DNA of 37,280 nucleotides from Candidatus Aenigmatarchaeota archaeon (GTDB lineage: Archaea > Aenigmatarchaeota > Aenigmatarchaeia > GW2011-AR5 > JACRAC01): the NCBI GenBank assembly GCA_039091255.1, contig JAWCMQ010000002.1, positions 142,126 through 179,405 on the forward strand, given 5' to 3'. Position numbers and translations under genes: made by a program. The notes beneath the pieces were generated by a model. It was given only the letters and a program-made list of their open reading frames with translations, was not told where the DNA came from and did not search any database. Positions 1-26,095 of this stretch are shown here, piece by piece; the stretch's first letter is position 1, and each line of letters begins with the position of its first letter.

Positions 1-37
1 AGTCGCATGATAGTGATTTGTTTGGAGAAATAAAAAG

Positions 38-54
38 GTGGTGACCTGGCATAG
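38..54. repeat. 17-nt exact copy (GTGGTGACCTGGCATAG) of one end of the 4855-5356 RNA locus, preceded by an A-rich tract
   Basis: Identical to 4855-4871. The upstream gagaaataaaaag resembles tagaaaataaac at 4843-4854. No complementary partner nearby. Confidence 0.6.
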
Positions 55-151
55 ACTCTGCCCAGGAGACAGGCTGGTAACTTGATGCCACATCTATCAA
101 CGACCTACAAGCTTTAAATATTGACACTTATCAATATGTTCGGTGCTTTAG

Positions 152-421
152 ATGAAGGTGTTGAAGTTCGGAGCGGTATGGTGCGCCGGCTGTTTGGTGA
201 TGAAGCCCAGATGGCAGGAAATCGAAAAAGAAAATCCGTGGCTTGAGACGGAATACTATGATTTCGACAAAGACAAAGAAGCCGTGGAAAAGTGGCACGT
301 CGACAAGAACCTTCCGACATTTGTATTTTTGGACAAGAATGGCAATGAGTTTCTCCGGCTCCATGGCGAGGTTCCGAAAGAAAAACTTCTGGAGATAATA
401 AATGAAAACAAGAGTAAGTGA
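152..421 (+). CDS. small thioredoxin-fold protein (WCAGC active site)
   Basis: 89-aa ORF with a W-C-A-G-C CxxC motif near the N-terminus and a thioredoxin-like length. TTTAAATA box ~30 nt upstream (113-121). Confidence 0.8.
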   Translation: MKVLKFGAVWCAGCLVMKPRWQEIEKENPWLETEYYDFDKDKEAVEKWHVDKNLPTFVFLDKNGNEFLRLHGEVPKEKLLEIINENKSK

Positions 422-433
422 GATGTCGGTTCT

Positions 434-754
434 GTGAAAACGGAAGATGAGTTAGAAAACTCTTTGGAGATTCTAAACGCTCTGGCGGATGAAACGCGGC
501 TCAAAATAATAGATTTTCTTCTCGACGGCGAGAAATGCGTCTGCGAGATATTCCCGCACGTCAAAAGAACGCAATCCACGGTCTCCATTCAACTCGGAAA
601 GTTGGAAAAGTGGGGCATTCTCGAATCGCGGAGAGACGGAAAGCGAATTTTCTACGGAATCAAGGATCGCAGGGTATGCGACATCTTCAAAGCGCTCGGA
701 TATGCCAAAGGCGCGGTCCTGGAAAAGCGCTGCTGCACGGAGAAGATAAAATGA
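434..754 (+). CDS. ArsR/SmtB-family winged-helix transcriptional regulator
   Basis: LNALADETRLKIIDFL...CVCEI...TVSIQLGKLEKWGIL is a typical ArsR HTH with a CVC metal/metalloid site. GTG start. Confidence 0.85.
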   Translation: MKTEDELENSLEILNALADETRLKIIDFLLDGEKCVCEIFPHVKRTQSTVSIQLGKLEKWGILESRRDGKRIFYGIKDRRVCDIFKALGYAKGAVLEKRCCTEKIK

Positions 755-1890
755 GACCACACGCGTTTCTTGCGGTTATGCTTGCTGCTCTATTGGTCTT
801 CCAAGGCGCAGCTTTGGCAGATTCATCCCAAACTCCGGAAGTGAAATTTTTCTACAGCAGCACCTGTCCGCATTGCGCTGCGGAAAAGGCGTTTTTGGAC
901 AAGATAAAAATTGATTATCCGAACGTAGCATTCAGATATTTTTCGATTGAAGATAGCAACAATGTTAATAGGTTATTCGAATTATATCGGCAATACGATG
1001 TTCAGTCATTTGAGCAAGGCGCCGTGCCGATAACATTCATAGGCGACGACTATTTTGTCGGCTTTAACGAAGCGATAGGGCAAAGCATCAAAGAGTCGAT
1101 CCTCAGGCAATTCCCGCCAGCGACCGAGCCTCAGCCAAAGGAAGAGTTCGAATACAAATGGCCTGTTGTCGACAGCATAGACATAGAGGCGTACTCTCTG
1201 CCAGCCCTCGCAGTCACGCTGGGCGTCCTCGACGGCTTCAACGTCTGTTCGCTCGGGGCGATAATACTTATCCTGAGCATGGTCTTGGCTTTGAAATCAA
1301 GGCGACTGACACTGCTTGCAGGCGGAATCTTCATTCTGGTCACCGTGATAGTTTACGGTATATTGATTCTGTTCTGGCACGGATTGTTTTCGCTACTGGC
1401 GCCGTGGACAAAGCTCATGCAGATCGTCGTCGGCCTGCTCATGATAGGCGGAGCTTTGTATTTCGTCAAGGAATTTTTCAGGATAAGGAAATACGGTGCC
1501 GAATGCTCCGTAAGCAAGGGTAAGATATATTCTAAGGCGGCAAGTTGGCTTGAAAAGCTGTTCACAAACCCGAGAAACCTGCTTGTTTTAGCGGGCGGTG
1601 TAATGCTGTTCGCAGCCGTTATAACAATCGTGGAATTCCCGTGCTCTGCCGTAGTTCCGCTTGTTTTTGCCGGAGTCTTGGCGAAAGCCCAGTTATCCGT
1701 GATAGGAACGTTGCTATATCTCGGCATTTACCTTCTGTTCTACATGCTGGACGAAATCGTTGTTTTCCTCGTCGCGGTATTCAGCATGAAACTCTGGGTC
1801 GCTTCGCCGAGATTTTTGACGTGGATATACCTCATCGCTGCAATCGTCTTGGTTGCTCTGGGCATATCCTATGTAATTGGTATGGTGTAA
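751..1890 (+). CDS. membrane thiol:disulfide oxidoreductase: signal peptide + thioredoxin-like domain (CPHC) fused to a CcdA/DsbD-like multi-pass domain
   Basis: ATG at 751 overlaps the arsR stop (ATGA). MRPHAFLAVMLAALLVF signal, STCPHCAAEK motif, then ~6 TM segments with membrane Cys (FNVCSLG, EFPCSAV). The longer 535 start of the ORF track overlaps arsR and is rejected. Confidence 0.75.
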   Translation: MRPHAFLAVMLAALLVFQGAALADSSQTPEVKFFYSSTCPHCAAEKAFLDKIKIDYPNVAFRYFSIEDSNNVNRLFELYRQYDVQSFEQGAVPITFIGDDYFVGFNEAIGQSIKESILRQFPPATEPQPKEEFEYKWPVVDSIDIEAYSLPALAVTLGVLDGFNVCSLGAIILILSMVLALKSRRLTLLAGGIFILVTVIVYGILILFWHGLFSLLAPWTKLMQIVVGLLMIGGALYFVKEFFRIRKYGAECSVSKGKIYSKAASWLEKLFTNPRNLLVLAGGVMLFAAVITIVEFPCSAVVPLVFAGVLAKAQLSVIGTLLYLGIYLLFYMLDEIVVFLVAVFSMKLWVASPRFLTWIYLIAAIVLVALGISYVIGMV

Positions 1891-1893
1891 GAA

Positions 1894-2121
1894 ATGAAAA
1901 TCGAAATCCTAGGATCGGGCTGCGCAAAGTGCAAGCAACTTGAAGCCAATGCGCGAAAAGCGATGGAAGAGCTGAAAGTCGGCGCAACAGTGGAAAAAGT
2001 CACCGACATCTCGAAAATAATCGAAAAGGTTTCCCTGACGCCTGCGATCGTTATCGACGGAAAGGTCAAGGCAGAAGGGCGAGTGCCTACTGCCGAAGAA
2101 ATAAAGAAATGGTTGAAATAA
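1894..2121 (+). CDS. small thioredoxin-family protein (redox-active disulfide protein 2 type, GCAKC)
   Basis: 75 aa, MKIEILGSGCAKC...PAIVIDGKV, typical of the thioredoxin_3-type proteins found next to ArsR and permease genes. Confidence 0.8.
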   Translation: MKIEILGSGCAKCKQLEANARKAMEELKVGATVEKVTDISKIIEKVSLTPAIVIDGKVKAEGRVPTAEEIKKWLK

Positions 2122-2424
2122 ATGACGAAAATCAAGACATGGTTCGTTTACGAGAACGTCGTCAAGAAAGGGAAATTTAGCGACCTTACGAAAAAGACCA
2201 TAAAAATAATACGCGACCTCGAAAAATCATACAGCAAAAATATGTTTGATCTAAGGTCAATAGAATACACGAGATTCCTTGCTGAATCGAATAAAGAAGT
2301 GTGCCTAAGCAAAGACGAACTTCCCGCGACGCTCATCAACGAAAAGGTCGTTTTCACGAAAAAACTGCCGTCTGTCCGAGATTTGAAACGAGAAGTCGAA
2401 TGGACGATGACTGGTAAGAAGTGA
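2122..2424 (+). CDS. hypothetical protein (100 aa)
   Basis: ORF tightly packed between neighbouring genes (starts right after the 2121 stop). No motif recognised. Confidence 0.45.
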   Translation: MTKIKTWFVYENVVKKGKFSDLTKKTIKIIRDLEKSYSKNMFDLRSIEYTRFLAESNKEVCLSKDELPATLINEKVVFTKKLPSVRDLKREVEWTMTGKK

Positions 2425-2762
2425 TTGAAATGGAACAGGGTGAAAAAAGATTCACGGAATGGCATGGAATACCCAGAGAGAAAATAGACTGGCATCCCAC
2501 GATTGACGAAAGCAAGTGCATCGGCTGCGGCATGTGCGCGGCAGGCTGCGGCAGGAACGTTTACGATTTCGACTTTGACAAAAACAAACCAGTCGTCGCC
2601 AGACCGCTGAATTGTTTGGTCGGGTGCACGACCTGCCAGGTAACTTGCTTACAGGACGCGATAAGCTTCCCGGACAAGCATAGTATCAGAAACTTAATCA
2701 AGGAAAAGGGTTTGTTAGCTGTTGCAAAGAAAGAGCTTCTCGAGAAATTAGGAAGGCGATGA
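2421..2762 (+). CDS. 4Fe-4S ferredoxin-domain protein
   Basis: CIGCGMCAAGC and CLVGCTTCQVTC cysteine motifs. Overlaps the upstream stop by 4 nt. An alternative ATG lies at 2430. Confidence 0.75.
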   Translation: MIEMEQGEKRFTEWHGIPREKIDWHPTIDESKCIGCGMCAAGCGRNVYDFDFDKNKPVVARPLNCLVGCTTCQVTCLQDAISFPDKHSIRNLIKEKGLLAVAKKELLEKLGRR

Positions 2763-2838
2763 TACGATAATCACCGACGTTCTGACCGCTGGAATAGGCG
2801 CACTGGGCGAATATCTTTCCGCTCACGTAATCACATGC

Positions 2839-3804
2839 TTGGTGCCGGCGTTGTTCATTTCAGGAGCGATTGCCGTCTTTCTGCACAAAGAAACCGTCCT
2901 CAAGTATCTCGGACCGAACACGAAAAAGCACATTTCATACGGATTTGCATCAATATCCGGGGCGATATTAGCCGTTTGTTCCTGCACCGTGCTGCCGCTT
3001 TTTGCTGGCATAAAAAGGCGCGGCGCAGGCCTTGGTCCTGCGATAACCTTTCTGTTCGCTGGCCCCGCGATAAACGTCCTTGCAATAATCTATACGGCTC
3101 AGGTCTTGGGTTTTACGATAGGACTGGCGCGGGCAATTCTGGCAATATCGTTATCGATAATACTCGGTTTCACTATGCATAAAATCTTCCAGAGAAAGGC
3201 CGTCGAAGACGGTGCGACTTTTTCAGACATCATAACACCGCACGGAAAATCAAAACCGGTCATATTGTCGTTCTTTGCGCTGCTCATCGCAATGCTCGTC
3301 ATCAACGGGCTGCAGATTGATATAATCGCAAAACTGGCGGTGTTCGCTGCACTGCTCGTATCGCTGCTGCTGCTGCTGAAATCACGGTTCGAAAGACCCG
3401 AACTTAAGGAATGGGCAAAAGAGACGCTGTCGATAACCAGGCTTATAATCCCATACCTGCTCATCGGCGTGTTCATCGCAGGCATGGTCGGATATCTTTT
3501 ACCGCAGGAAATCGTGGAAGCATATCTTGGCGGAAACGGTTTGCTTTCGAATTTCGTTGCGTCAGTATTCGGCGCATTCATGTATTTTGCAACGCTCACG
3601 GAAGTTCCGATTATATCCGAACTCATGAAGCTCGGCATGGGCAGCGGTCCTGCTCTTGCTCTGCTGCTTGCAGGCCCCAGCCTAAGCCTGCCCAACATGC
3701 TCGTGATAAGAAAAGTGCTCGGCACGAAGCAAACAGCCGTTTATGTCTGTCTTGTAATCTTATTCTCCACGATCACCGGATTTGTTTTCGGAAATATCGT
3801 TTGA
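2839..3804 (+). CDS. multi-pass permease (ArsP/YraQ-like, COG0701 type)
   Basis: About 8 TM segments, AVCSCTVLP motif, GPALALLLAGPSLSLPN repeat typical of this permease family. TTG start as given by the ORF track. The in-frame sequence upstream (2764-2838) still looks like part of the protein. Confidence 0.75.
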   Translation: MVPALFISGAIAVFLHKETVLKYLGPNTKKHISYGFASISGAILAVCSCTVLPLFAGIKRRGAGLGPAITFLFAGPAINVLAIIYTAQVLGFTIGLARAILAISLSIILGFTMHKIFQRKAVEDGATFSDIITPHGKSKPVILSFFALLIAMLVINGLQIDIIAKLAVFAALLVSLLLLLKSRFERPELKEWAKETLSITRLIIPYLLIGVFIAGMVGYLLPQEIVEAYLGGNGLLSNFVASVFGAFMYFATLTEVPIISELMKLGMGSGPALALLLAGPSLSLPNMLVIRKVLGTKQTAVYVCLVILFSTITGFVFGNIV

Positions 3805-4254
3805 TTAGATTATTTTCATCCTCGCCATGGCAGCTCCGCATTTCGGGCATTTGAGCGAATAACATGGCACACCGCGCTCATGCGCAACGTGCGCGCCGCA
3901 TTTCGGGCATTCGCATTCGCCGCCTGGCCCTGCTCCGCGACCCATCATCCTTTTCATCTTTCCAACTACCATATACGGACCGCCTTCTATTCTTATCGCC
4001 TTGCCGTTGGCCAGAGCATCGGCTATCTTTTTTCTCGCAGACAAGAGCAGTCGATGAAAAGTCGGCTGAGAAATCTTCATTTTTCTAGCTGCGTCTTCCT
4101 GCTCAAGGCCTTCCAAATCCTTCAGCCGAACAGCTTCGAATTCATCGACCGTCAAGATGGATTCATCTAGCTCGGCGAGCCTGATTCCAGCCGGCTTGAA
4201 ATACGTCACGCGCGGCTCGAATTCCACCTTTCGGAAAAGCCTCGGTCTCGGCAC
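3805..4254 (-). CDS. DUF134 (UPF0251) DNA-binding protein with C-terminal double CPKCG zinc ribbon
   Basis: MPRPR..KV.FEP.V.YFKP.G...L...LT.DE.EA.RL.D..GL.Q..AA..M.ISQPTF.R.L..AR.K.A is the DUF134 signature. GTG start overlaps the upstream stop by 1 nt. Confidence 0.8.
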
Positions 4255-4520
4255 TATTTCAGCTCCTTAAGCCTTTTTGCCAGTTCCTGCTTTTCGGTCT
4301 CAAGCTGCTTTAGCTCAGCTTCCAGTATCTTCTTTTGTTCTTCCTTGGTCAAAGCTGCGGGCTCTGCAAATGGAAACGCTTGCTGGCACCTCCATCCAAA
4401 TCCTCTTCCAAAGCCTCTGCCAAACCCGCGGCCAAACGCAAGCCCGCGTCCGCAAGGCCCAAGCCCTCGTCCAGTCAAAGGTCCGCGTCCCATTGGTCCT
4501 GTGCCATCTCCGCCTGGCAT
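4254..4520 (-). CDS. DUF5320-like Gly/Arg-rich protein with C-terminal coiled coil
   Basis: [19 protein letters not shown]...[13 protein letters not shown] then [17 protein letters not shown]. This is the usual partner of DUF134 genes. ATG at 4520 preferred over the upstream GTG at 4535. Confidence 0.7.
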
Positions 4521-4599
4521 GTTTTTCACCCCCATGTTATGAATACATATTCATAATCTATTTGAGGCTTCGGAGTGCAGGAAAGTGACGCGAGGATGC

Positions 4600-4809
4600 T
4601 TACTTCTTTTCGCCAGCGTGATGGTACCAGAGAACTGCGCCAGCGAGAAACGTCGCGATTCCCAGAAATCTCTGGGCCGTTATCAGCGTTTCTCCAGCAA
4701 GATAGTACGTGCTTCCAAGAACCAGAAGCCCGAACAGCACCACCAAAGCCGCCATCGGCTTGGCTATGTGCCAACCTTTATGCTCTTTGCGTTTTGCTTT
4801 TCGCGCCAT
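4600..4809 (-). CDS. small two-TM membrane protein (69 aa)
   Basis: Internal ATG (MARKAKRKEHKGW...) followed by two hydrophobic helices. The longer ORF-track start (4959) would run into the RNA locus. Confidence 0.45.
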   Translation of the reverse strand: MARKAKRKEHKGWHIAKPMAALVVLFGLLVLGSTYYLAGETLITAQRFLGIATFLAGAVLWYHHAGEKK

Positions 4810-4854
4810 ACTTTCTATTCCGATTCCAAGTAAATAAAGGTTTAGAAAATAAAC

Positions 4855-5356
4855 GTGGTGACCTGGCATAGCCCGTCTTATGTAAGCCCTTTTGCTAGCG
4901 CAAAAGCGCTTGCGGAAAAGGAGCGTGTCCCGCTTCCTTTCAAAAGGGCCTTGCAACATTTGTCTAAGCGCTACGTTGATATTCTAACCGCTCTTGTCAC
5001 GATAGCCGCTCATGCCAAAGCGAGAGCGGCTATTGTTGCAAAAGCGGCCGAAATCCCAACCCTCTTGCACCCGCGCGTGCCGGACCCGTTTCAACTTATC
5101 ATAACTGCGAAGCGGCTATTCGTAGAATAACCGCTGAGCAGCTATATGCAACGTCATTCATGCGTCGGTTGCTAAGTGCGTTTCTGTGATCCGGCAACAG
5201 ACTCTCGCCCGTAACCTTAACGGATCGCGCTTTTGCAGGTGCTAATCTAACCGTCCGCCTTTACGCGAACGCGGTTATTTCACATTCCTGCAGAGTGGAC
5301 AGAGCTTCCTCAGCGCTGCTGTTACGCAGAACCGAAGTTGCAGCTCAGGTCACCAC
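4855..5356. ncRNA. ~500-nt structured RNA locus closed by a 12-bp terminal helix; identity and strand unresolved (5S-like motifs on +, RNase P-like motifs on -)
   Basis: 4855-4865 gtggtgacctg is the exact complement of 5346-5356 caggtcaccac. There is no credible ORF. The locus contains one family-A module (4884-4921) and the same hairpin modules as the rRNA spacers. TATA-like boxes lie on both sides (4831-4838 for +, ~5380-5388 for -). Confidence 0.6.
4884..4921 (+). repeat. family-A module copy (only copy in plus orientation)
   Basis: aagcccttttgctagcgcaaaagcgcttgcggaaaagg. AAGC...GCTT outer pairs, CTTTTGC/GCAAAAG hairpin, GCGGAAAAG tail. Confidence 0.85.
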
Positions 5357-5425
5357 TAAATCGAATATCGCCGCAAAGTTAATAAGGTTTGCGAAAACGC
5401 GGCTCTCCAAGAATCTGAGGCGCGG

Positions 5426-5650
5426 CTATCGGTCTTCGAGTATGCGCGATGCGTCGTCCAAAGCGTTCAGCGTCGTCGCCGACTCTTCACTCGCTTGGTT
5501 CGAGCCCATGCGGTACAAAACAAGCTTGCCGCCCTGCTGGCATAACTCAAGATTGTTTCGCTTGAGATAGCTGCCTAAGCCGTTCCTTTTGGTTATTCCG
5601 CGGTCTTTGCAAAGTTCCTCGATGCTTTCATATCGTCCGACAACTTGCAT
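5426..5650 (-). CDS. hypothetical protein (74 aa)
   Basis: ATG-initiated ORF downstream of ogg on the same strand. No motif recognised. Confidence 0.4.
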   Translation of the reverse strand: MQVVGRYESIEELCKDRGITKRNGLGSYLKRNNLELCQQGGKLVLYRMGSNQASEESATTLNALDDASRILEDR

Positions 5651-7192: not shown

Positions 7193-7206
7193 AAAGAAAA
7201 TAAAAT
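7193..7206 (-). terminator. oligo-T terminator of the rRNA operon
   Basis: In sense, CATTTTATTTTCTTT lies immediately after the 3' strand of the 23S processing stem. Confidence 0.55.
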
Positions 7207-7226
7207 GAAGCATCATAGGTCTGGAC
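7205..7226 (-). repeat. 3' strand of the 23S processing stem
   Basis: atgaagcatcataggtctggac is the perfect reverse complement of 11000-11021. Confidence 0.85.
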
Positions 7227-7450
7227 TTCCACTATTCTAACCGCCCGCTTTTACGCGAAAGCGGCTATTTTCAAGCGGTTATTATTCGCGGAACCGCGAC
7301 AGCCGCAGCTGGCGCGTTTTGAAGGCTAGCATTGGTGTAGGAGATAGTGGGCTGAGCGCGTCGCCGAGGCTTCGCGCGTACACCCCTTCTCCATAACGGG
7401 TCGTCTTGCCCGTACCGCATGTCTATTTTTGAGAGCGGCTTAGGCCTTAG

Positions 7451-8153: not shown

Positions 8154-8313
8154 ACAGCCAGGTGAGGACCAGCCGACAGCGACGCCGCAACGCGCGGGGT
8201 CGATACGAACTCTCACCCGCCACGACACCATTATCCCCGTGGTAGCTTTTCTCATGTCACAAGCCCCTCTCTAGAGCGCTTTCTTGATGTCCTCGCGGAT
8301 TTCATGCATTCTG

Positions 8314-8350
8314 TTCTTTCCGCAAGTGCTTTCTTTCAAGAAAGGGCTTA
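8314..8350 (-). repeat. family-A module copy (divergent) in 23S
   Basis: Sense TAAGCCCTTTCTTGAAAGAAAGCACTTGCGGAAAGAA, inserted upstream of GAAAAGCTACCACGGGGATAA. Confidence 0.75.
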
Positions 8351-8962
8351 TCTAAAGGAACTTGCGTATCGCTAGGTCACGCTTTCGCGTTTGGATTCCA
8401 CGCTGGGCGGAATCCAATCAATCCGGCTTTTGCCCTTGCACTCTACAGGCGATTTCTGACCGCCCTGAGCCGAACTTAGAGGACCCTTGATACCCTTTCA
8501 AGGGTGTGCCGCCCCAGCCAAACTGCCCACCTGTTGCTGTCTTCCGCTTTCGCGAAGTTAGCAATACAAGAAAGATAGGGCAGTGTTACATTTTCGACTC
8601 CACCTCAACTTGCGTCAAGGTTTCTACGTCTCCTGCCTACGCTATACAACCTCGCTCGTACCACAACAACAGACTGCAGTAAAGCTCAACGGGGTCTACT
8701 CTTCCCACCGAAGGTCTCCAGCCCAGTCCCTGGAACGATAGTTTCACCGAGTTCCAACCCGGGACAGCGAAGATCTAGTTAATCTATCATGCAGGCCAGC
8801 ATTTAACTGGCAAGGGATTACGCTACCTTAAGACCCTCAGAGTTAGGGCCGGCCTACAGCGGGGCATAGGCAGGTTGTAACCCGCTTTCACACACCGCTA
8901 GTGGCCACGATTCATCGGCTATACAAGGCCTTTGGGCTTAGCAGCCGACTGCGTTTCTTAAC

Positions 8963-9082
8963 CGGCGAAAACAACATGTTTTGGCTGCGATCATTTTGCA
9001 ACATAATCGCAGCAATACGTTCCAATTCGATTGAGGCTGCTAATTCGTCAATCTTGTCGGAACTTTCAGGCAGTTTTCGCCG
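8963..9082 (-). other. ~120-nt insertion in 23S carrying the family-B hairpin
   Basis: Closed by cggcgaaaac (8963-8972) and gttttcgccg (9073-9082). It follows GGACUGUUUAACAAA. Positions 8983-9016 are ~80% identical to 16S 12924-12960. Confidence 0.65.
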
Positions 9083-10284: not shown

Positions 10285-10333
10285 TCTAGCGCAACCTTTT
10301 CCGCCAGCGCTTTTGCGCCAGCAAAAAGGGCTG
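10285..10333 (-). repeat. family-A module copy in 23S domain II region (core 10296-10333)
   Basis: Sense CAGCCCTTTTTGCTGGCGCAAAAGCGCTGGCGGAAAAGGTTGCGCTAGA, between GCCGTAGCGAAA and GCGAGTCCGAAAGGGCG. Confidence 0.8.
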
Positions 10334-10999: not shown

Positions 11000-11021
11000 G
11001 TCCAGACCTATGATGCTTCAT
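11000..11021 (-). repeat. 5' strand of the 23S processing stem
   Basis: gtccagacctatgatgcttcat is the perfect 22-nt complement of 7205-7226. Confidence 0.85.
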
Positions 11022-11226
11022 CGCCGTGCCGACCGGGAAGTCAGCGCGGCTTTACAGCCGCCATGCAAGCAAAGCTTGCGGGCGGTCAGCGATTCGCAGA
11101 GTGCGACCTCCGCCGAACCAAATAGTCAGAGAAACAGCGTGATGAAATCGCCGAAACGATGCCTTCCGCGCTGCACCACACGTGCCTGCCCGCACGAGTG
11201 GGACTCTGACCAGCTCGGTTCTTATC

Positions 11227-11250
11227 ATAACTGCGCGAAGCGCAGCTATT
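11227..11250 (-). repeat. 24-nt spacer hairpin (copy 1), between tRNA-Ala and 23S
   Basis: ataactgcgcgaagcgcagctatt is identical to 11638-11661. It forms a 10-bp helix with a G.U pair in minus sense and an A.C mismatch in plus sense. Confidence 0.75.
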
Positions 11251-11309: not shown

Positions 11310-11426
11310 TGGACCCGGCGGGATTCGAACCCGCAGCCTCTACCTGCCATGTTTTCCGCCGGCGCTTTTTGCGTCAGCAAAAAGGGCCGTTGCAAGGGTA
11401 GCGATCTTCCATTGATCTACAGGCCC
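11310..11426 (-). tRNA. tRNA-Ala(UGC) with a 44-nt intron at the canonical 37/38 site
   Basis: Sense GGGCCTG TA GATC AATGGAA GATC G CTACC CTTGCA [intron] A GGTAG AGGCT GCGGG TTCGAAT CCCGC CGGGTCC A. It has the G3:U70 alanine identity pair and sits in the usual 16S-23S spacer position. 117 - 44 = 73 nt. No encoded CCA. Confidence 0.85.
11346..11389 (-). repeat. tRNA-Ala intron = family-A module
   Basis: Sense (A)CGGCCCTTTTTGCTGACGCAAAAAGCGCCGGCGGAAAACATGGC. Outer pairs are CGGC/GCCG. Confidence 0.8.
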
Positions 11427-11661: not shown

Positions 11662-11882
11662 CGTCCGCCTTTGCGGGCAAAGGTCTAGCATCGCCCCCTC
11701 TTTTGATCAAACTTTTCTTTTAGAAAAGTTTATGGAGGTGATCCAGCCGCACGTTCCCGTACGGCTACCTTGTTACGACTTAGCCCCTCTTGCGGGCATC
11801 TGGTTCGACTTATTCCTGCTCGCCGCATGCTCCGCATGCGGAAGTCTCAGCGTAAGCCTCACCAGAGACCCACTCAATTGGC

Positions 11883-11920
<38 letters not shown>

Positions 11921-11927
11921 GCGAGAG

Positions 11928-12053
11928 ATTTCACAGCAGCAAGCGCATCATTGAGCTGCTACAAAGTGCGCGCAAAGCTCAGTGTCAAGCCTCTACATTC
12001 TTCAACGCTCGCGCTCACCTTTGGCCGGGTTAATCATCTGGCACTTGCCGCTA
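11928..12053 (-). other. ~126-nt insertion in the loop of the GCGAGGG/CTCTCGC helix upstream of TGAATACG (16S)
   Basis: The consensus TCATCA loop is expanded by an unrelated structured segment. It is not family A. Confidence 0.55.
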
Positions 12054-12149
12054 TGATGACCCTCGCTTACTAGGGATTCCGGCTTCATGAGGGCGGGTTG
12101 CAGCCCTCAATCCGAACTAGGCGCAGGTTTAAGAGATTGGCTTCCCCTC

Positions 12150-12226
12150 TCCCGGTCCTTTCCTTTCTCACAGACTCGCGGAAAGTTTTCCGCAAGCGCT
12201 TTCTTTTGTGAAAAGAAAGGGCTTAC
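12150..12226 (-). repeat. 16S insertion with family-A core (12185-12225)
   Basis: It splits GACCCCG|...|GAGGGGAAGCCAATCTC. Core sense is TAAGCCCTTTCTTTTCACAAAAGAAAGCGCTTGCGGAAAAC. Confidence 0.75.
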
Positions 12227-12407
12227 GGGGTCGCATCCCATTGTCCTGCGCATTGTAGGCCCCGTGTATCCCAAGCAAATTCGGGCCATACTGACCTGCC
12301 GTCGCCCACTCCTTCCTCTGATTTAGCACCAGCGGTCCTGCTAGAGTGCACGCCGTCCGGAGACAGCGTTAGCAACTAGCAGCGTGGGTCTCGCTCGTTT
12401 CCTGACT

Positions 12408-12459
12408 ATCTGCAGCCTTGCTGGCGTTTCCGCCAGCGCTTTTCCGCAGAAAAGGGCTG
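12408..12459 (-). repeat. 16S insertion, family A
   Basis: It splits the universal CCTGTTA|AGTCAGG.AACGAGCG. Sense CAGCCCTTTTCTGCGGAAAAGCGCTGGCGGAAACGCCAGCAAGGCTGCAGAT. Confidence 0.85.
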
Positions 12460-12611
12460 TAACAGGACAGCTCACGCCACGAGCTGACGACGGCCATGCA
12501 GCTCCTCTCAGCTTGTCAGGTAAGCCCTTCAGACTGACCCTCATCCTGCTGTCTTTGCTGGTAAGGTTCCCGGCGTTGTATCCAATTAAACCGGAGCCTC
12601 CACCCCTGGTA

Positions 12612-12657
<46 letters not shown>

Positions 12658-12755
12658 CCCCAGGTGGCCCGCTTAACACCTTCGCTCCGACACTGCAGGT
12701 CCTCGTAGGACCTGCAACATCAAGCGGGCATCGTTTACAGCGTGGACTACTGGGG

Positions 12756-12826
12756 TATTTAGGGCCTCTTCATGACTGCGCTGCGGAGTTCTTTTCCGCA
12801 GGCGCTTTTCTTTCAAGAAAAGGGCC
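12756..12826 (-). repeat. 16S insertion, family A core plus 3' extension
   Basis: It splits the universal GGATTAGATA|CCCCAGTAGTCC. Sense GGCCCTTTTCTTGAAAGAAAAGCGCCTGCGGAAAAGAACTCCGCAG...GGCCCTAAATA. Confidence 0.85.
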
Positions 12827-12900
12827 TATCTAATCCCAATCGCTCCCCACGCTTTCATCCCTCACCGTCGGATCTGTCCTAGTGCGGCGCCTTCGCCATT

Positions 12901-12977
12901 CACCCAGAAGGAAATGATGTCATAACTGCGACTATTTGTAATACCATAATCGCAGCAATTTTGCTCACTTCCGTCCG
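12901..12977 (-). other. 16S insertion carrying the family-B hairpin
   Basis: It splits GGACCACCTGA|ATGGCGAAGGCG. Positions 12924-12960 share cataatcgcagcaat and the flanking sequence with 23S 8983-9016. Confidence 0.7.
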
Positions 12978-13006
12978 TCAGGTGGTCCGTTGGAGATTAA
13001 AGGAAT

Positions 13007-13051
13007 GTAAAGTCTTTTCCGCCAGCGCTTTTCGCGCAGCGAAAAGGGCTG
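13007..13051 (-). repeat. 16S insertion, family A
   Basis: It splits GGTAGGGGTAAAA|ATTCCTTTAATC. Sense CAGCCCTTTTCGCTGCGCGAAAAGCGCTGGCGGAAAAGACTTTAC. Confidence 0.85.
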
Positions 13052-13385
13052 TTTTACCCCTACCTCCAACGTACCCCGCACCTCTACCAGTCCCTAGTCC
13101 CGCAGTATCCCTGGCACGCCCTACATTCCAGTATGCGCAGCATCGCTGGAAATTGCGCTTGCGCATATGTCAGCTGCAGGATTTCACCAGAGACTTGCGG
13201 AACCGGCTACGGATGCTTTAGACCCAATAATCGTGAGAACCACTTGTGGCGCGGTTATTACCGCGGCGGCTGGCAACCGTCTTGCCCACCACTTATTCGC
13301 CAAGCTGTTTACACTTGGCAAAAGCCGCAGGAAACCTGCGGCACTCAGGGTCCCCGCCCTCACCATTGCTGGTATTCCCCCAGCA

Positions 13386-13440
13386 CTTCTTGATTTTCCG
13401 CCAGCGCTTTTGCAAAGCGCTAGCAAGCAAGAAGGGCTGT
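13386..13440 (-). repeat. 16S insertion, family A
   Basis: It splits GCGCGAAACCTTCCCAA|TGCTGGGGG. Sense ACAGCCCTTCTTGCTTGCTAGCGCTTTGCAAAAGCGCTGGCGGAAAATCAAGAAG. Confidence 0.8.
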
Positions 13441-13680
13441 TTGGGAAGGTTTCGCGCCTGCTGCGCCCCGTAAGGCCTTGATTCATGTCTCAGAATCAAT
13501 CTCCGGGCTATCACTCTCATGACCCGCACCGATTATCGCCTGGTCGGGCATTTACCCCGACTACGAGCTAATCGGCCGCAGCCTCATCCTTGGGCCCCTC
13601 AGGTTTCAGCAAGGGTGCGTTCTGGCAACCCTTTTGGAGCTCGCATCGCGTTGGCGTTGGAAGCTCGCTTGCTTCACTCT

Positions 13681-13711
13681 TTCTGCCAGCGCTTTCTCCC
13701 AGAAAGGGCTG
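13681..13711 (-). repeat. 16S insertion, family A core (V2 region; true limits uncertain)
   Basis: Sense CAGCCCTTTCTGGGAGAAAGCGCTGGCAGAA. Confidence 0.65.
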
Positions 13712-14285
13712 TTTCCAGCCTCCCTCACCTATGGGGTATTGAGCCCACGTTTGCGGGTGTATCCCCCACCCAAGGGTAGATTAGCTACGTGTTACTGAGC
13801 AGTGCGCCGAGGTCTTGCACCTCTCGACTCGCATGGCTTAGCCGGACCCTGATAGCAGTTCTCTCCGGCGGGATCAACCAGAATTTCGGGTTCGCACTTT
13901 ATTCTAACTAATTTTGCGAAGCAAAATTAGCTATTCCGTTATCCCTGCATTTGGTTCGCCGTTCGTGCCTTCATTGCGCGCAAGCAAGCTCGCGCGTTCA
14001 TCTTCGGCTGTATCATAATTGCCCGCTCCAGATTTGCTGGCGGCAATCATTCCACAACCATCATCGCCCCGCCCGAAGGCACAGGCTCGGAAAACAACCG
14101 CAGTCTGCAACGACTTGTGGTTGAAAGAGATAGATAGTGCTATCTAGTCTCTAATCTTTGACGCGCCGCCGATACCAGACGGCAACGCAAATGCGGGATC
14201 TCCGCAAAAGCTCCCCCGCAAGATTCCTGAACCCCCAGCATGCCTTCCCTTTCACGCTGAGCAAGCTATTCATCAGAAGAAAAAG

Positions 14286-16242: not shown

Positions 16243-16374
16243 TGCGGGGGACGAGATTTGAACTCGCGCACGCACTAAGCGACAGGCTCCTCAAGCCTGC
16301 TCCTATAGCCGCCCTCTCTGCTGGCGCCTTATGCGCCCGCAAAAAGATCATTGGCCAGGCTCGGACACCCCCGC
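16243..16374 (-). tRNA. tRNA-Leu(GAG) with a 46-nt D-loop intron
   Basis: Sense GCGGGGG TG TCC GAGCCTGGCCAA [intron] A GGA G CAGGC TTGAGGA GCCTG TCGCTTAGTGCGTGC GCGAG TTCAAAT CTCGT CCCCCGC A. 132 - 46 = 86 nt, class II. Confidence 0.8.
16305..16350 (-). repeat. tRNA-Leu D-loop intron, divergent family-A relative
   Basis: Sense TGATCTTTTTGCGGGCGCATAAGGCGCCAGCAGAGAGGGCGGCTAT. Confidence 0.6.
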
Positions 16375-17775: not shown

Positions 17776-17809
17776 TGCTCCCAGGGGGATTTGAACCCCC
17801 GTCCAGGGC

Positions 17810-17823
17810 TTTCCACTCTTTCA
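17810..17823 (-). other. tRNA-Glu intron 3 (14 nt, at or next to 37/38)
   Basis: Sense TGAAAGAGTGGAAA. Its GAAAG can pair with the anticodon-loop CUUUC. Confidence 0.5.
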
Positions 17824-17830
17824 TCGAAAG

Positions 17831-17892
17831 CTTCCGTCCGCACGCCGAAGCGTGCAGCATTCGGCTTTCTCAACTCCTTCGCAGAGCGAAGG
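17831..17892 (-). repeat. tRNA-Glu intron 2 (62 nt, between positions 31 and 32), degenerate family-A-like start
   Basis: Sense CCTTCGCTCTGCGAAGGAGTTGAGAAAGCC...GCACGCTTCGGCGTGC...GGAAG. Confidence 0.5.
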
Positions 17893-17912
17893 GCCCTTAT
17901 CCTTGACCGGGA

Positions 17913-17975
17913 TGTCCAGCCTTGCTCCTCTTTTCCGCCGGCGCATTGGCGTGCGCCACGCGAGCAAAAGGGCTG
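17913..17975 (-). repeat. tRNA-Glu intron 1 (63 nt, D-loop), family A
   Basis: Sense CAGCCCTTTTGCTCGCGTGGCGCACGCCAATGCGCCGGCGGAAAAGAGGAGCAAGGCTGGACA. Confidence 0.7.
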
Positions 17976-18060
17976 CTAGACGATGGGAGCCTGTGCAAGC
18001 CAGGGTGCCAATCACCCAGGCGAGTGGGCCGGGGCAGAATCGAACTGCCAATCTCCTGCT

Positions 18061-18101
18061 TTCCTTTTCGCCAGCACTTTGCGCGAAGCGTAAAGTGCTG
18101 C
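18061..18101 (-). repeat. tRNA-Val anticodon-loop intron, family A variant
   Basis: Sense GCAGCACTTTACGCTTCGCGCAAAGTGCTGGCGAAAAGGAA. The usual C.C mismatch is replaced by an A-U pair. Confidence 0.8.
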
Positions 18102-18121
18102 TGTAAGGCAGGCGTCATGCC

Positions 18122-18235
18122 ATTTTGCGTCGGAAGCTCTAGCTCCTTTCCGCCAGCACTTTCGCTCGAAAGCCGAGGCTTTCGGCGACTCAGGAAAGCT
18201 TCGCTTTTGCTGAGTCGCGGTTAGCAAAAGGGCTG
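18122..18235 (-). repeat. tRNA-Val D-loop intron, long family-A member
   Basis: Sense CAGCCCTTTTGCTAACC...(internal hairpins)...CGAAAGTGCTGGCGGAAAGGAGCTAGAGCTTCCGACGCAAAAT. Confidence 0.7.
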
Positions 18236-18252
18236 CACTAGACCACCGGCCC

Positions 18253-18326: not shown

Positions 18327-18462
18327 CGCTGAGGGAGGGATTTGAACCCTCATGGGCTTGCGCCCGCCGCCTAACCGCAGGCTTTCCGCTGGCGCTTTTT
18401 GCTCTGCGCCAGGAAAAGGGCCATAGCAGAGCGGTGCCGTGACCTGGTTTGGCTACCTCAGC
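18327..18462 (-). tRNA. tRNA-Ser(GCU) with a ~51-nt intron at 37/38
   Basis: Sense GCTGAGG TA GCC AAACCAGGTCAC GGC A CCGCT CTGCTA [intron] A GGCGG CGGGCGCAAGCCCAT GAGGG TTCAAAT CCCTC CCTCAGC G. It has a long variable arm and discriminator G. 136 - 51 = 85. Confidence 0.8.
18373..18423 (-). repeat. tRNA-Ser intron, family A
   Basis: Sense TGGCCCTTTTCCTGGCGCAGAGCAAAAAGCGCCAGCGGAAAGCCTGCGGTT. Outer pairs are UGGC/GCCA. Confidence 0.8.
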
Positions 18463-24922: not shown

Positions 24923-26095
24923 ATGACAAAAAGAAACGGTAACTATTTGTTCACCTCAGAGTCTGTGACCGAAGGCCACCCAGACAAAATTTGTGATCAG
25001 ATTAGCGACGCAATCCTCGACGCCATGTACGCCAAAGACCCTTATTCCCGCGTAGCCGTCGAAACGCTCGTAACAACAGGCCTTTGCATAGTCGCAGGCG
25101 AGGTTACGACATCGTGCTACATTGACATCCAAGACACGATTCGCAAGACCATTCGCGACATCGGCTACACCAGCGACGTGCTCGGCTTCGATTTCGACTC
25201 ATGTGGAGTGCTTGTGGCAATTCACGAGCAATCGCCCGACATAGCGCAAGCCGTTATCAAACATGCAGACCACGAAGACCTTGGCGCAGGCGATCAAGGC
25301 CTGATGTTCGGTTATGCCTGCAACGAGACGCCAGAGCTCATGCCGCTACCCATATCGCTTGCGCACAAGCTTTGCATGCGCCTAGCTGAGCTGCGCAAAA
25401 GCGGAGAAATAAAGTGGCTGCGACCTGATGGCAAGTCTCAAGTGACCGTCGAATATGAGAACGGCAGACCGAAGCGCGTGCATACTGTAGTTGTCAGCAC
25501 GCAGCACGATCCTGGCGTTACAAACGAACAAATCCGCACAGAAATCATAGAAAAGGTCATCGAGCCTGTATGCGGGCGCTGGATCGACGAGCGCACAATT
25601 TTTCATATAAACCCCTCAGGCCGCTTCGTGCTAGGAGGTCCTGCAGGCGACACTGGCGTCACTGGACGAAAAATAATCGTTGACACCTATGGCGGTATGG
25701 GCAGCCACGGCGGTGGCGCCTTTTCCGGCAAAGACCCTACCAAAGTCGACCGTTCGGCATCTTACATGGCACGCCATGTAGCAAAGAACATCGTTGCAGC
25801 AGGATTGGCAGAAGAGTGTGAAGTTCAACTTTCCTATGCAATCGGCATCGCCGAACCCGTATCGGTTCTTGTGAACACTTTCGGCACCGGCAAGCTGCCA
25901 GACGAAAAGCTGGCTGAGCTCGTTCGCAAAGTCTTCCCGCTGAAACCCGCACAGATAATCAGGTACCTGAATCTTCGCAGACCTATATACAGGAAGACTG
26001 CAGCTTACGGCCACTTCGGCCGCGAAGACCCCGATTTCACATGGGAAACCACAAACAAAGTTGAGGAGCTTAGGCAAGCAATCCAATCGTTTTAA
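24923..26095 (+). CDS. metK: S-adenosylmethionine synthetase, bacterial/eukaryotic MetK type
   Basis: [37 protein letters not shown] and [16 protein letters not shown] are hallmark MetK motifs. Confidence 0.93.

Follow-up and report, generated by a model that had tools for sequence, protein, structure and literature searches.

Within a 37,280-nucleotide (nt) stretch of contig JAWCMQ010000002.1 from a Candidatus Aenigmatarchaeota archaeon (the window), positions 5356 to 4855 of the minus strand very probably represent an archaeal type-A ribonuclease P (RNase P) RNA gene of ~502 nt, with repeat-related hairpins on its periphery that are retained in the RNA. RNase P RNA is the catalytic subunit of the enzyme which, with archaeal Rpp proteins, removes the 5' leaders of pre-tRNAs; judging from its family membership, the RNA encoded here would join Rpp proteins in this trimming. 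An earlier note on this DNA had described the locus as a helix-closed RNA and had left its identity and strand ambiguous. At the level of sequence, the case for RNase P RNA on the minus strand is firm: it combines a full-length match to Rfam family RF00373, a clade of homologues (one of them above the gathering score), covariation, a promoter box, and a T-rich tail. The plus-strand and 5S readings that the note had kept in play were rejected.

Rfam and structural evidence for RNase P RNA on the minus strand

All 4227 Rfam families were searched for in both strands of positions 4600 to 5600 at E ≤ 10, the 5S, RNase P, and SRP models being those that the earlier note had proposed to check. RF00373 matched the minus strand from 5353 to 4858 over the entire model (positions 1 to 288 of 288; 38.1 bits, E = 3.8e-9) and was the sole meaningful family on either strand of this region. 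Neither 5S rRNA (RF00001) nor signal recognition particle (SRP) RNA was matched on either strand there, and no 5S rRNA was found at the Rfam gathering score across the whole window; the 5S-like motifs that had been pointed out on the plus strand therefore found no backing.

In the Rfam alignment, the conserved elements follow one another in the correct order with long insertions between them: conserved region (CR) I (GAGGAAGCUC), CR-II (ACAGAAACG), CR-III (UGAAACGG), J5/15 (GCAAG), J15/2 (CGCUUAGACAAAUG), and CR-V (ACAUAAGACGGGCUA). The core is normal for a type-A RNA, with helices P1 to P5, P7 to P12, and P15/16, the P4 pseudoknot, and CR-I to CR-V, to which a P19 helix is added. Every structural property tested for archaeal type-A RNase P RNA was found, and only the Rfam score fell short of its cut-off.

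Base pairing was counted in an E-INS-i alignment of 13 homologues. The long-range CR-I/CR-V helix, P4, pairs AGCUC-U-GUC with GAC-GGGCU (4871 to 4878), contains one bulged U, and is paired in 9 to 13 of the 13. A P4-like pairing had been suspected earlier; its 5' element, GAGGAAGCUC, is indeed the 5' strand of P4, but the partner is GACGGGCU (4871 to 4878) and not GGGCUU at 4884 to 4889, which closes P19. Elsewhere in the C domain, P1 is conserved and forms its pairs, P3 has partial support, and P2, P5, and P7 show compensatory changes. P2 is paired in 11 to 13 homologues at five of its six positions and in 4 at the outermost one (changes of GC to GU, AU to GC, and CG to UA), P5 in 12 or 13 with an exchange of U.G and C-G, and P7 in 9 to 11. 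In the S domain, CR-II and CR-III flank P12, and both P9 (pair exchanges AU/UA/CG and GU/CG) and the base of P12 covary strongly, their pairing being preserved, like that of P2, P5, and P7, through compensatory changes.

The minus strand is fixed by the covariation in P1, P2, P4, P5, P7, P9, P12, and P19 together with the upstream CTTTATTAA box and the T-rich tail. The C(T)TTATTAA box (CTTTATTAA) stands at an equal distance in six homologues (L131, L127, L042, L138, L139, and L130), and T-rich tails follow P1 in most homologues. There is a negligible chance that the product is instead transcribed from the plus strand, as a 5S-like or other RNA that the 12-bp helix of 4855 to 4866 with 5345 to 5356 would close. 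The helix itself is as first described, with 11 Watson-Crick pairs and a single pair that is G.U in the plus sense and C.A on the minus strand; this G.U speaks for the plus strand, as does a plus-strand fold (−198.1 kcal/mol) that also beats shuffled sequences (z = −7.4). The minus-strand fold, however, reaches −224.5 kcal/mol (z = −7.8), so that the plus-strand fold is 26 kcal/mol less stable. Conserved U.G pairs of the minus-sense P4, P5, and P9 become A.C when read as plus strand, the promoter box and T-rich tail have the orientation of a minus-strand gene, and no 5S, SRP, or other meaningful plus-strand Rfam match was obtained (E ≤ 10). Smaller observations of the earlier note were reproduced: the locus holds no credible open reading frame (ORF), TAAATAAA is present at 4831 to 4838, and the 10-mer AGAAAATAAA occurs at both 4844 to 4853 and 7195 to 7204, the latter copy following the 23S processing stem.

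A clade of homologues of variable length

Relatives were sought with the clade-specific P4 strand GAGGAAGCUCUGUCCAC. Scanning GTDB species genomes with a 15-mer lacked specificity, giving more than 120 mostly chance bacterial matches; it still gave two true homologues, L061 and L042, both in metagenome-assembled genomes named Candidatus Aenigmatarchaeota. In JGI metagenomes, a 19-mer gave 21 loci, 12 of them with RNase P RNA homologues, of which 10 were new and distinct; L124 (on the same contig as L042) and L135 (equal to L129 at every landmark) were left out as duplicates. In all, 12 distinct homologues carrying GAGGAAGCUCUGUCCAC were obtained (L061, L042, and the 10 metagenomic loci).

Gene lengths in the clade run from 314 to 575 nt, a span that to our knowledge is unusually long for archaeal RNase P RNA, and the window gene is ~190 nt longer than the shortest member. 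The E-INS-i alignment confines all length variation to four peripheral sites: the P5/P7 hairpin, P12, P16, and P19. Scores against RF00373 fall as length rises, from 92 bits in L131 through 72 in L129, 65 in L130, 55 in L136, and 43 in L061 to 38 in the window. L131, with a match of 310 nt and 92 bits, aligns over the full length of the model and lies above the gathering score of 84. Because L131 passes and the score declines with length, the window gene is to be counted among the long members of a clade of genuine RNase P RNAs. Synteny is conserved as well: in L131, L136, L130, and the window, the 23S rRNA gene is followed 2 to 7 kb downstream, on the same strand, by the RNase P RNA gene.

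Several observations weigh against this assignment. At 38.1 bits, the match lies below the RF00373 gathering score of 84, so that membership does not follow from that cut-off alone. We attribute the low score to ~200 nt of insertions, which the covariance model penalizes; the shortfall grows with insertion length across the clade homologues, and the verdict of the earlier note that the locus is not a clean RNase P is accurate insofar as these peripheral insertions push the score below threshold. No RNA reads or contigs covered the locus in metatranscriptomes X16, X17, and X22 (X16, which belongs to the window's own study, contained only rRNA of other organisms), and transcription is therefore deduced from sequence signals, not observed. 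CR-I departs from the universal GAGGAAAGUCC, though identically in all clade members. [quoted passage not shown]

It is highly improbable that the locus is a decaying RNase P RNA pseudogene or a repeat-invaded operon remnant whose functional counterpart is encoded elsewhere or is a protein-only enzyme. Decay would accommodate the sub-threshold Rfam score, the many insertions, and the duplicated gene 3' end at window positions 20 to 54. Against it, every core helix and conserved region is intact, with covariation throughout the 13 homologues, the insertions are found at peripheral tips only, the promoter box and T-rich tail are conserved, and relatives from other sites share both architecture and synteny. 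The features of the gene are collected in Table 1.

Table 1. Features of the predicted RNase P RNA gene, in the order of transcription
Feature	Positions	Strand	Basis or remark
TATA-like promoter box CTTATTAAC	5378-5386	minus	ends ~24 nt upstream of the P1 start
P1, 5' strand GUGGUGACCUG	5346-5356, pairs with 4855-4865	minus	paired in 9-11 of 13; most unpaired homologues are alignment gaps where the sequence start was guessed or cut
P2, 5' strand UGCAAC	5337-5342, pairs with 4952-4957 (GUUGCA)	minus	covariation
P3 hairpin	5311-5334	minus	Rfam alignment; partial covariation
CR-I/P4 5' strand GAGGAAGCUCUGUCC, clade variant of GAGGAAAGUCC	5297-5311	minus	invariant in 13 of 13
Extra P5/P7 hairpin, stem UGCAGG/CCUGCA	5234-5292	minus	stem covariation; clade alignment
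CR-II ACAGAAACG, P10/11-P12 junction	5179-5187	minus	Rfam and clade alignment
P12, 84 nt	5094-5177	minus	base covaries
CR-III UGAAACGG	5086-5093	minus	Rfam and clade alignment
P7 3' strand, P5 3' strand, J5/15 (CGCGC-GGGUG-CAAG)	5064-5077	minus	pair counts
P15-P16 arm	4975-5061	minus	clade alignment
J15/2 GCGCUUAGACAAAUG	4957-4971	minus	fits the Rfam consensus CGCuuAGucGAAUG; conserved in the clade
P19, 68 nt, closing stem AGGCCCUUUU/AAAAGGGCUU	4884-4951	minus	between the 3' strands of P2 and P4
CR-V/P4 3' strand ACAUAAGACGGGCUA	4869-4883	minus	Rfam alignment; pair counts
T-rich tail GUUUAUUUUCU, likely terminator	4844-4854	minus	directly after P1

Four peripheral inserts and their relation to repeats of the genome

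By sequence comparison, three of the four modules belong to the genome's own hairpin repeat families, namely, a family termed family A and two spacer or trailer types. That the locus and the rRNA operon have hairpin modules in common, as the earlier note had proposed, was borne out by blastn-short matches with E values of 7e-9, 6e-6, and 0.002.

The tip of the extra P5/P7 hairpin (5242 to 5280) is a copy of the 23S-trailer hairpin at 7232 to 7270 (87% over 39 nt, E = 6e-6), which extends slightly a likeness first reported between 5246 to 5280 and 7233 to 7268. Its stem reads UGCAGG/CCUGCA in the window and CCAUGG/CCGUGG in L127, and the nearest relatives have 13, ~45, or 70 nt of unrelated sequence at this site. 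The hairpin occupies the position of P5.1 in bacterial type-B RNAs. Rfam placed it as a 54-nt insert inside P8; this placement was rejected as an alignment artefact, since the clade alignment and covariation favor a separate P5/P7 hairpin.

Distal P12 (5095 to 5145) is a spacer-type hairpin (AUAGCUGC../..GCAGUUAUGAUAAG) of a family also found at 11223, 11510, and 11634; it occurs three times in the 16S-23S spacers, and a related form lies within the 16S intron at 12899 to 12978. The 15-mer at 5095 to 5109 is identical to 11221 to 11235 (E = 0.002), as had been noted, and a second hairpin, GCGGUUAUUC-UAC-GAAUAGCCGC, is nested in the loop of the first. In the X2 metagenome, a form without 5105 to 5169 (65 nt of distal P12, depth 12.2) occurs beside the full form (depth 16), with flanks at a depth of ~28. 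An essential ribozyme gene here varies in length within one population.

At the tip of P16 stands a lineage-specific hairpin insert of 41 to 43 nt (4995 to 5037), where relatives carry a GUAA or UUCG loop; its matches elsewhere in the window are weak only. A 10-bp perfect stem does exist here, as the earlier note had held, at 5002 to 5011 with 5024 to 5033; the segments to which it had been assigned, 4996 to 5005 and 5022 to 5031, are not complementary.

A P19 helix of 44 to 75 nt is present in 13 of 13 clade members, and its closing stem covaries (AU/GC/CG and CG/UA). The P19 of the window contains, at 4884 to 4921, an entire family-A element that is reverse-complemented with respect to the copies in rRNA and tRNA; over 35 nt, it is 91% complementary to 10295 to 10329 (E = 7e-9). 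The earlier detection of a family-A copy at these positions was correct; its orientation, which had been cited for the plus strand, is that of a reverse-complement copy inside a minus-strand gene. The P19 interior of the window and its five nearest relatives reads CAGCC..UUUUCCGCYRGCGCUUUU..AAAAGGGCUG, and the antisense family-A core (UUUUCCGCYRGCGCUUUU..AAAAGGGC) recurs in L127, L138, L139, L141, and L132.

DNA contigs of metagenome X5 skip 4884 to 4941 and 4979 to 5056 and have 63 other nt in place of 5196 to 5292. By inspection alone, no tandem G.A motifs of a K-turn/L7Ae site were seen in the modules.

Family A as the core of mini-introns in rRNA and tRNA genes

At least 17 copies of family A are present in the window: 6 in 16S rRNA, 2 in 23S rRNA, and 1 in the RNase P RNA, with the remainder in tRNA introns and a single tRNA spacer. 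All but the RNase P copy, which is inverted, have the same orientation (16 of the 17). The 16S gene (11733 to 13884, minus strand) measures 2152 nt against a model of 1478 nt and contains at least seven short (43 to 93 nt) BHB mini-introns, most of them with a family-A core. The inserts occupy former terminal loops, for example, between CCCC-GU and GA-GGGG.

RNA evidence came from microbial-mat metatranscriptome contigs that are 97 to 100% identical to the window 16S in the aligned pieces and that represent a near-identical strain in other samples. These contigs skip 12408 to 12459, 12756 to 12826, 12899 to 12978, 13005 to 13051, 13126 to 13168, 13375 to 13440, and 13620 to 13712. DNA contigs from the mat share the same five single-nucleotide polymorphisms and hold sequence at five of the seven skipped sites, the mat DNA being identical to the window at 13005 to 13051; the insert at 12756 to 12826 is missing from the DNA of the mat strain too. 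Of the seven RNA junctions, six lie where a canonical BHB is cleaved (five exactly and one within a 3-nt alignment ambiguity), a canonical BHB being a 4-bp central helix between two staggered 3-nt bulges, and the BHB folds of the 16S introns lie 0 to 3.5 kcal/mol above the minimum free energy. RNA skipping, DNA retention, and BHB junctions together establish family A as the core of a family of spliced BHB mini-introns.

At the site of the 12408 to 12459 intron (junction 12407/12460; runs X6 and X7), the mat DNA has an insertion of 631 nt, compared with the 52-nt intron of the window, and another large insertion lies near 13267 to 13281 in the same runs; both are absent from the RNA contigs. 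These two insertions, the sequence of which could not be read, may be larger introns, possibly coding for homing endonucleases. A relative in X5, with flanks at least 96% identical, is without 12150 to 12224 (16S, 75 nt) and 8268 to 8348 (23S, 81 nt), both of family A, and without 8956 to 9082 (23S, 127 nt), which indicates that elements are gained or lost between close relatives.

Expanded genes are also seen elsewhere in the window. The 23S gene measures 3676 nt against a model of 2987 nt. The tRNA-Ala(UGC) in the 16S-23S spacer (11310 to 11426) has a 45-nt family-A intron, tRNA-Ser(GCU) (18327 to 18462) has a 51-nt intron with a canonical BHB, and tRNA-Leu(GAG) (16243 to 16374) has a family-A insert in its D-loop. 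A probable tRNA-Val(UAC) of 228 nt (18025 to 18252) contains two introns and is followed by a further tRNA-like start at ~17800 to 17991; Rfam reported neither of these at the gathering score, and ARAGORN found no tRNA at all in the window. Another family-A copy lies in the spacer between tRNA-Ser and tRNA-Val.

Probable retention of the RNase P modules

Strict BHB scans returned nothing at the P19, P12, or P5/P7 modules. A relaxed scan was unspecific, with ~34 candidates per shuffled sequence, and only strict geometry and independent boundaries were relied upon. At the P16 tip, a weak candidate was found with a predicted excision of 4995 to 5035 (H1 of 7, H2 of UUGC/GUGA, and H3 of 6).

This candidate bears on the possibility that the RNase P RNA gene contains introns, such that at least one module, likeliest the P16 tip, is excised by tRNA-splicing endonuclease and the exons are ligated into a mature RNA of ~460 nt or less. 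In the 16S of a near-identical strain, hairpins of family A and related types are genuine BHB introns that are spliced, and such hairpins also form the introns of tRNA-Ala, tRNA-Ser, and tRNA-Leu; within the locus, no BHB score exceeds that of the P16-tip insert (H1 of 7, H2 of 4/4, H3 of 6), and its predicted excision leaves CCGCUUUUGCAAAGAGCGG, which is near the uninterrupted P16 of L138. Nevertheless, we consider excision distinctly unlikely. The P16-tip BHB score is attained by 7% of dinucleotide shuffles, two of the H2 pairs are G.U, and folding as a BHB costs 8.2 kcal/mol relative to the extended helix, compared with 0 to 3.5 kcal/mol for the verified 16S introns. The other three modules have no BHB, the P19 copy is in reverse complement, and none of the DNA-level deletions at the RNase P locus in X2 and X5 falls on a BHB site.

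Since no canonical BHB flanks them, the modules probably stay in the mature RNase P RNA, where, as judged from the sequence, they would form surface expansions pointing away from the active site.

Proposed origin of the insertions

The inserts are best explained as having arisen by the copying of hairpin elements between stable-RNA genes of one genome. The copying may have proceeded by DNA recombination or at the RNA level, by reverse splicing. The inserts all sit on helix tips that project away from the P4 core, a location that explains their being tolerated. Being inverted, the P19 copy is unable to form the pairing between exon and intron that a BHB requires. It was probably fixed, as an unspliceable insertion, in the ancestor of the window, L127, L138, L139, L141, and L132.

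We also weighed a function for the antisense family-A core of P19, namely, that it pairs, in a guide-like manner, with AAAAGCGCYRGCGGAAAA of family-A introns in pre-tRNA or pre-rRNA, or with such introns once excised; RNase P would in this way be linked to substrates that contain introns. The window and the five relatives just named retain the 18-nt core despite large indels in the rest of P19, the core is complementary at 16 to 18 of 18 positions to sense copies in rRNA and tRNA introns, and the RNase P copy alone is inverted, all 16 other strong window copies sharing one orientation. Such complementarity is trivially expected from an inverted repeat copy, however; the core of the window is sequestered in its own hairpin, and its conservation may reflect recent common descent or gene conversion. 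We therefore regard this function as very unlikely.

A broader proposal is that the stable-RNA genes of this lineage (16S, 23S, tRNAs, a tRNA spacer, and RNase P RNA) have been colonized by one pool of hairpins with turnover on a population timescale, and that the RNase P elements are active, with the P16 tip being spliced or the P19 core pairing in trans. Taken as a whole, it is unlikely to be correct. If it were, a spliced insert or a trans-acting P19 core would provide a new link between RNase P and archaeal splicing, and a spliced P16 tip would give the first example of an RNase P RNA gene with an intron.

Other features of the window

A direct repeat is formed by 20 to 54 and 4837 to 4871, 4817 bp apart, and comprises the final 17 nt of the RNase P RNA gene together with the T-rich tail (GTGGTGACCTGGCATAG plus flanks). 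It brackets a cluster of genes for DUF134 and DUF5320 proteins, an ArsP permease, a ferredoxin, and a thioredoxin-like protein; a 451-amino-acid ORF within 55 to 4850 has a weak thioredoxin-like match. A second RNase P gene at positions 1 to 1500 was considered and rejected, as this region gave no Rfam match and no 5' partner strand. Also rejected was an integrated element at 55 to 4850 with an attachment (att) site in the RNase P 3' end: no integrase and no empty-site variant were found, and the apparent ends of an empty site were an artefact in which the 21-nt repeat of one colinear contig of 5699 nt aligned to the other copy.

A perfect 22-bp inverted repeat (7205 to 7226 and 11000 to 11021) flanks the 23S rRNA, as expected of the processing stem of pre-23S rRNA, and the trailer hairpin at 7232 to 7270 that is shared with the RNase P RNA lies inside it. 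An S-adenosylmethionine synthetase gene at 24923 to 26095 matches the MetK-type Pfam domains PF00438, PF02772, and PF02773; we take the MetK type to be the bacterial and eukaryal one, which is presumably unusual for an archaeon.

Implications and comparison with known systems

Pipelines that apply the Rfam gathering score would miss this gene and those of several relatives (38 to 72 bits versus 84), and the affected genomes could be mis-scored as being without RNase P RNA. The clade offers a natural series for studying how far a ribozyme tolerates accretion, since all growth is at helix tips. That three of the four added hairpins copy elements of the same genome connects the enlargement of a structured RNA with repeats that move or recombine, and not with gradual elongation in place. 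A literature search turned up no RNase P RNA gene described as carrying such elements, and we know of no family-A-like element in such a gene.

Fujishima and colleagues are said to have described, in 2010, the transposition of tRNA introns in Thermoproteales. Like the introns of that group, the family-A elements in the 16S, 23S, and tRNA genes of the window are short, noncoding, BHB-bounded, mutually similar, and gained or lost between close relatives. They differ in that their host is DPANN-like, in that one core is common to rRNA introns, tRNA introns, and a tRNA spacer and appears inverted in RNase P RNA, and in that the RNase P copy is without a BHB. The 16S genes of Thermoproteales contain short hairpin-forming BHB introns (Jay and Inskeep, 2015; PMC4496867), to which the mini-introns with a family-A core are comparable.

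The window gene shares with archaeal type-A RNase P RNAs (RF00373; Methanothermobacter and Pyrococcus) helices P1 to P5, P7 to P12, and P15/16, the P4 pseudoknot, CR-II (ACAGAAACG), CR-III (UGAAACGG), J5/15 (GCAAG), J15/2 (CGCUUAG..AAUG), and full-length alignment to the model. It differs in its size of ~500 nt, compared with ~290 to 320 nt, in the CR-I of the whole clade (GAGGAAGCUC and not GAGGAAAGUCC), in the extra P5/P7 hairpin, and in the lengthening of P12, P16, and P19 by repeat-derived hairpins.

P19 is a length-variable helix situated between the P2 and P4 3' strands, and its distribution among Archaea and Bacteria is sporadic (PMC12974513). The P19 of the clade, present in 13 of 13 members, has the same position as that of bacterial type-B (Geobacillus and Bacillus), eukaryal, and some archaeal RNAs; unlike in these, its interior in the subclade of the window is a complete family-A mini-intron sequence in reverse complement. 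Archaeal and eukaryal expansions of P12 and P3, such as halobacterial P12.1/P12.2, represent growth at tips that leaves the core untouched (PMC12974513), and the window gene likewise grows at helix tips around an untouched core. In contrast to these expansions, its hairpins copy repeats of the same genome, vary between strains and within one population, and are also inserted at P16, P19, and the P5/P7 junction. Both P19 and the expansion of tips were known before; new are the size of up to 575 nt, the CR-I of the clade, the P5/P7 hairpin, the repeat-derived expansions shared with rRNA and tRNA introns and spacers, and their turnover at the strain level.

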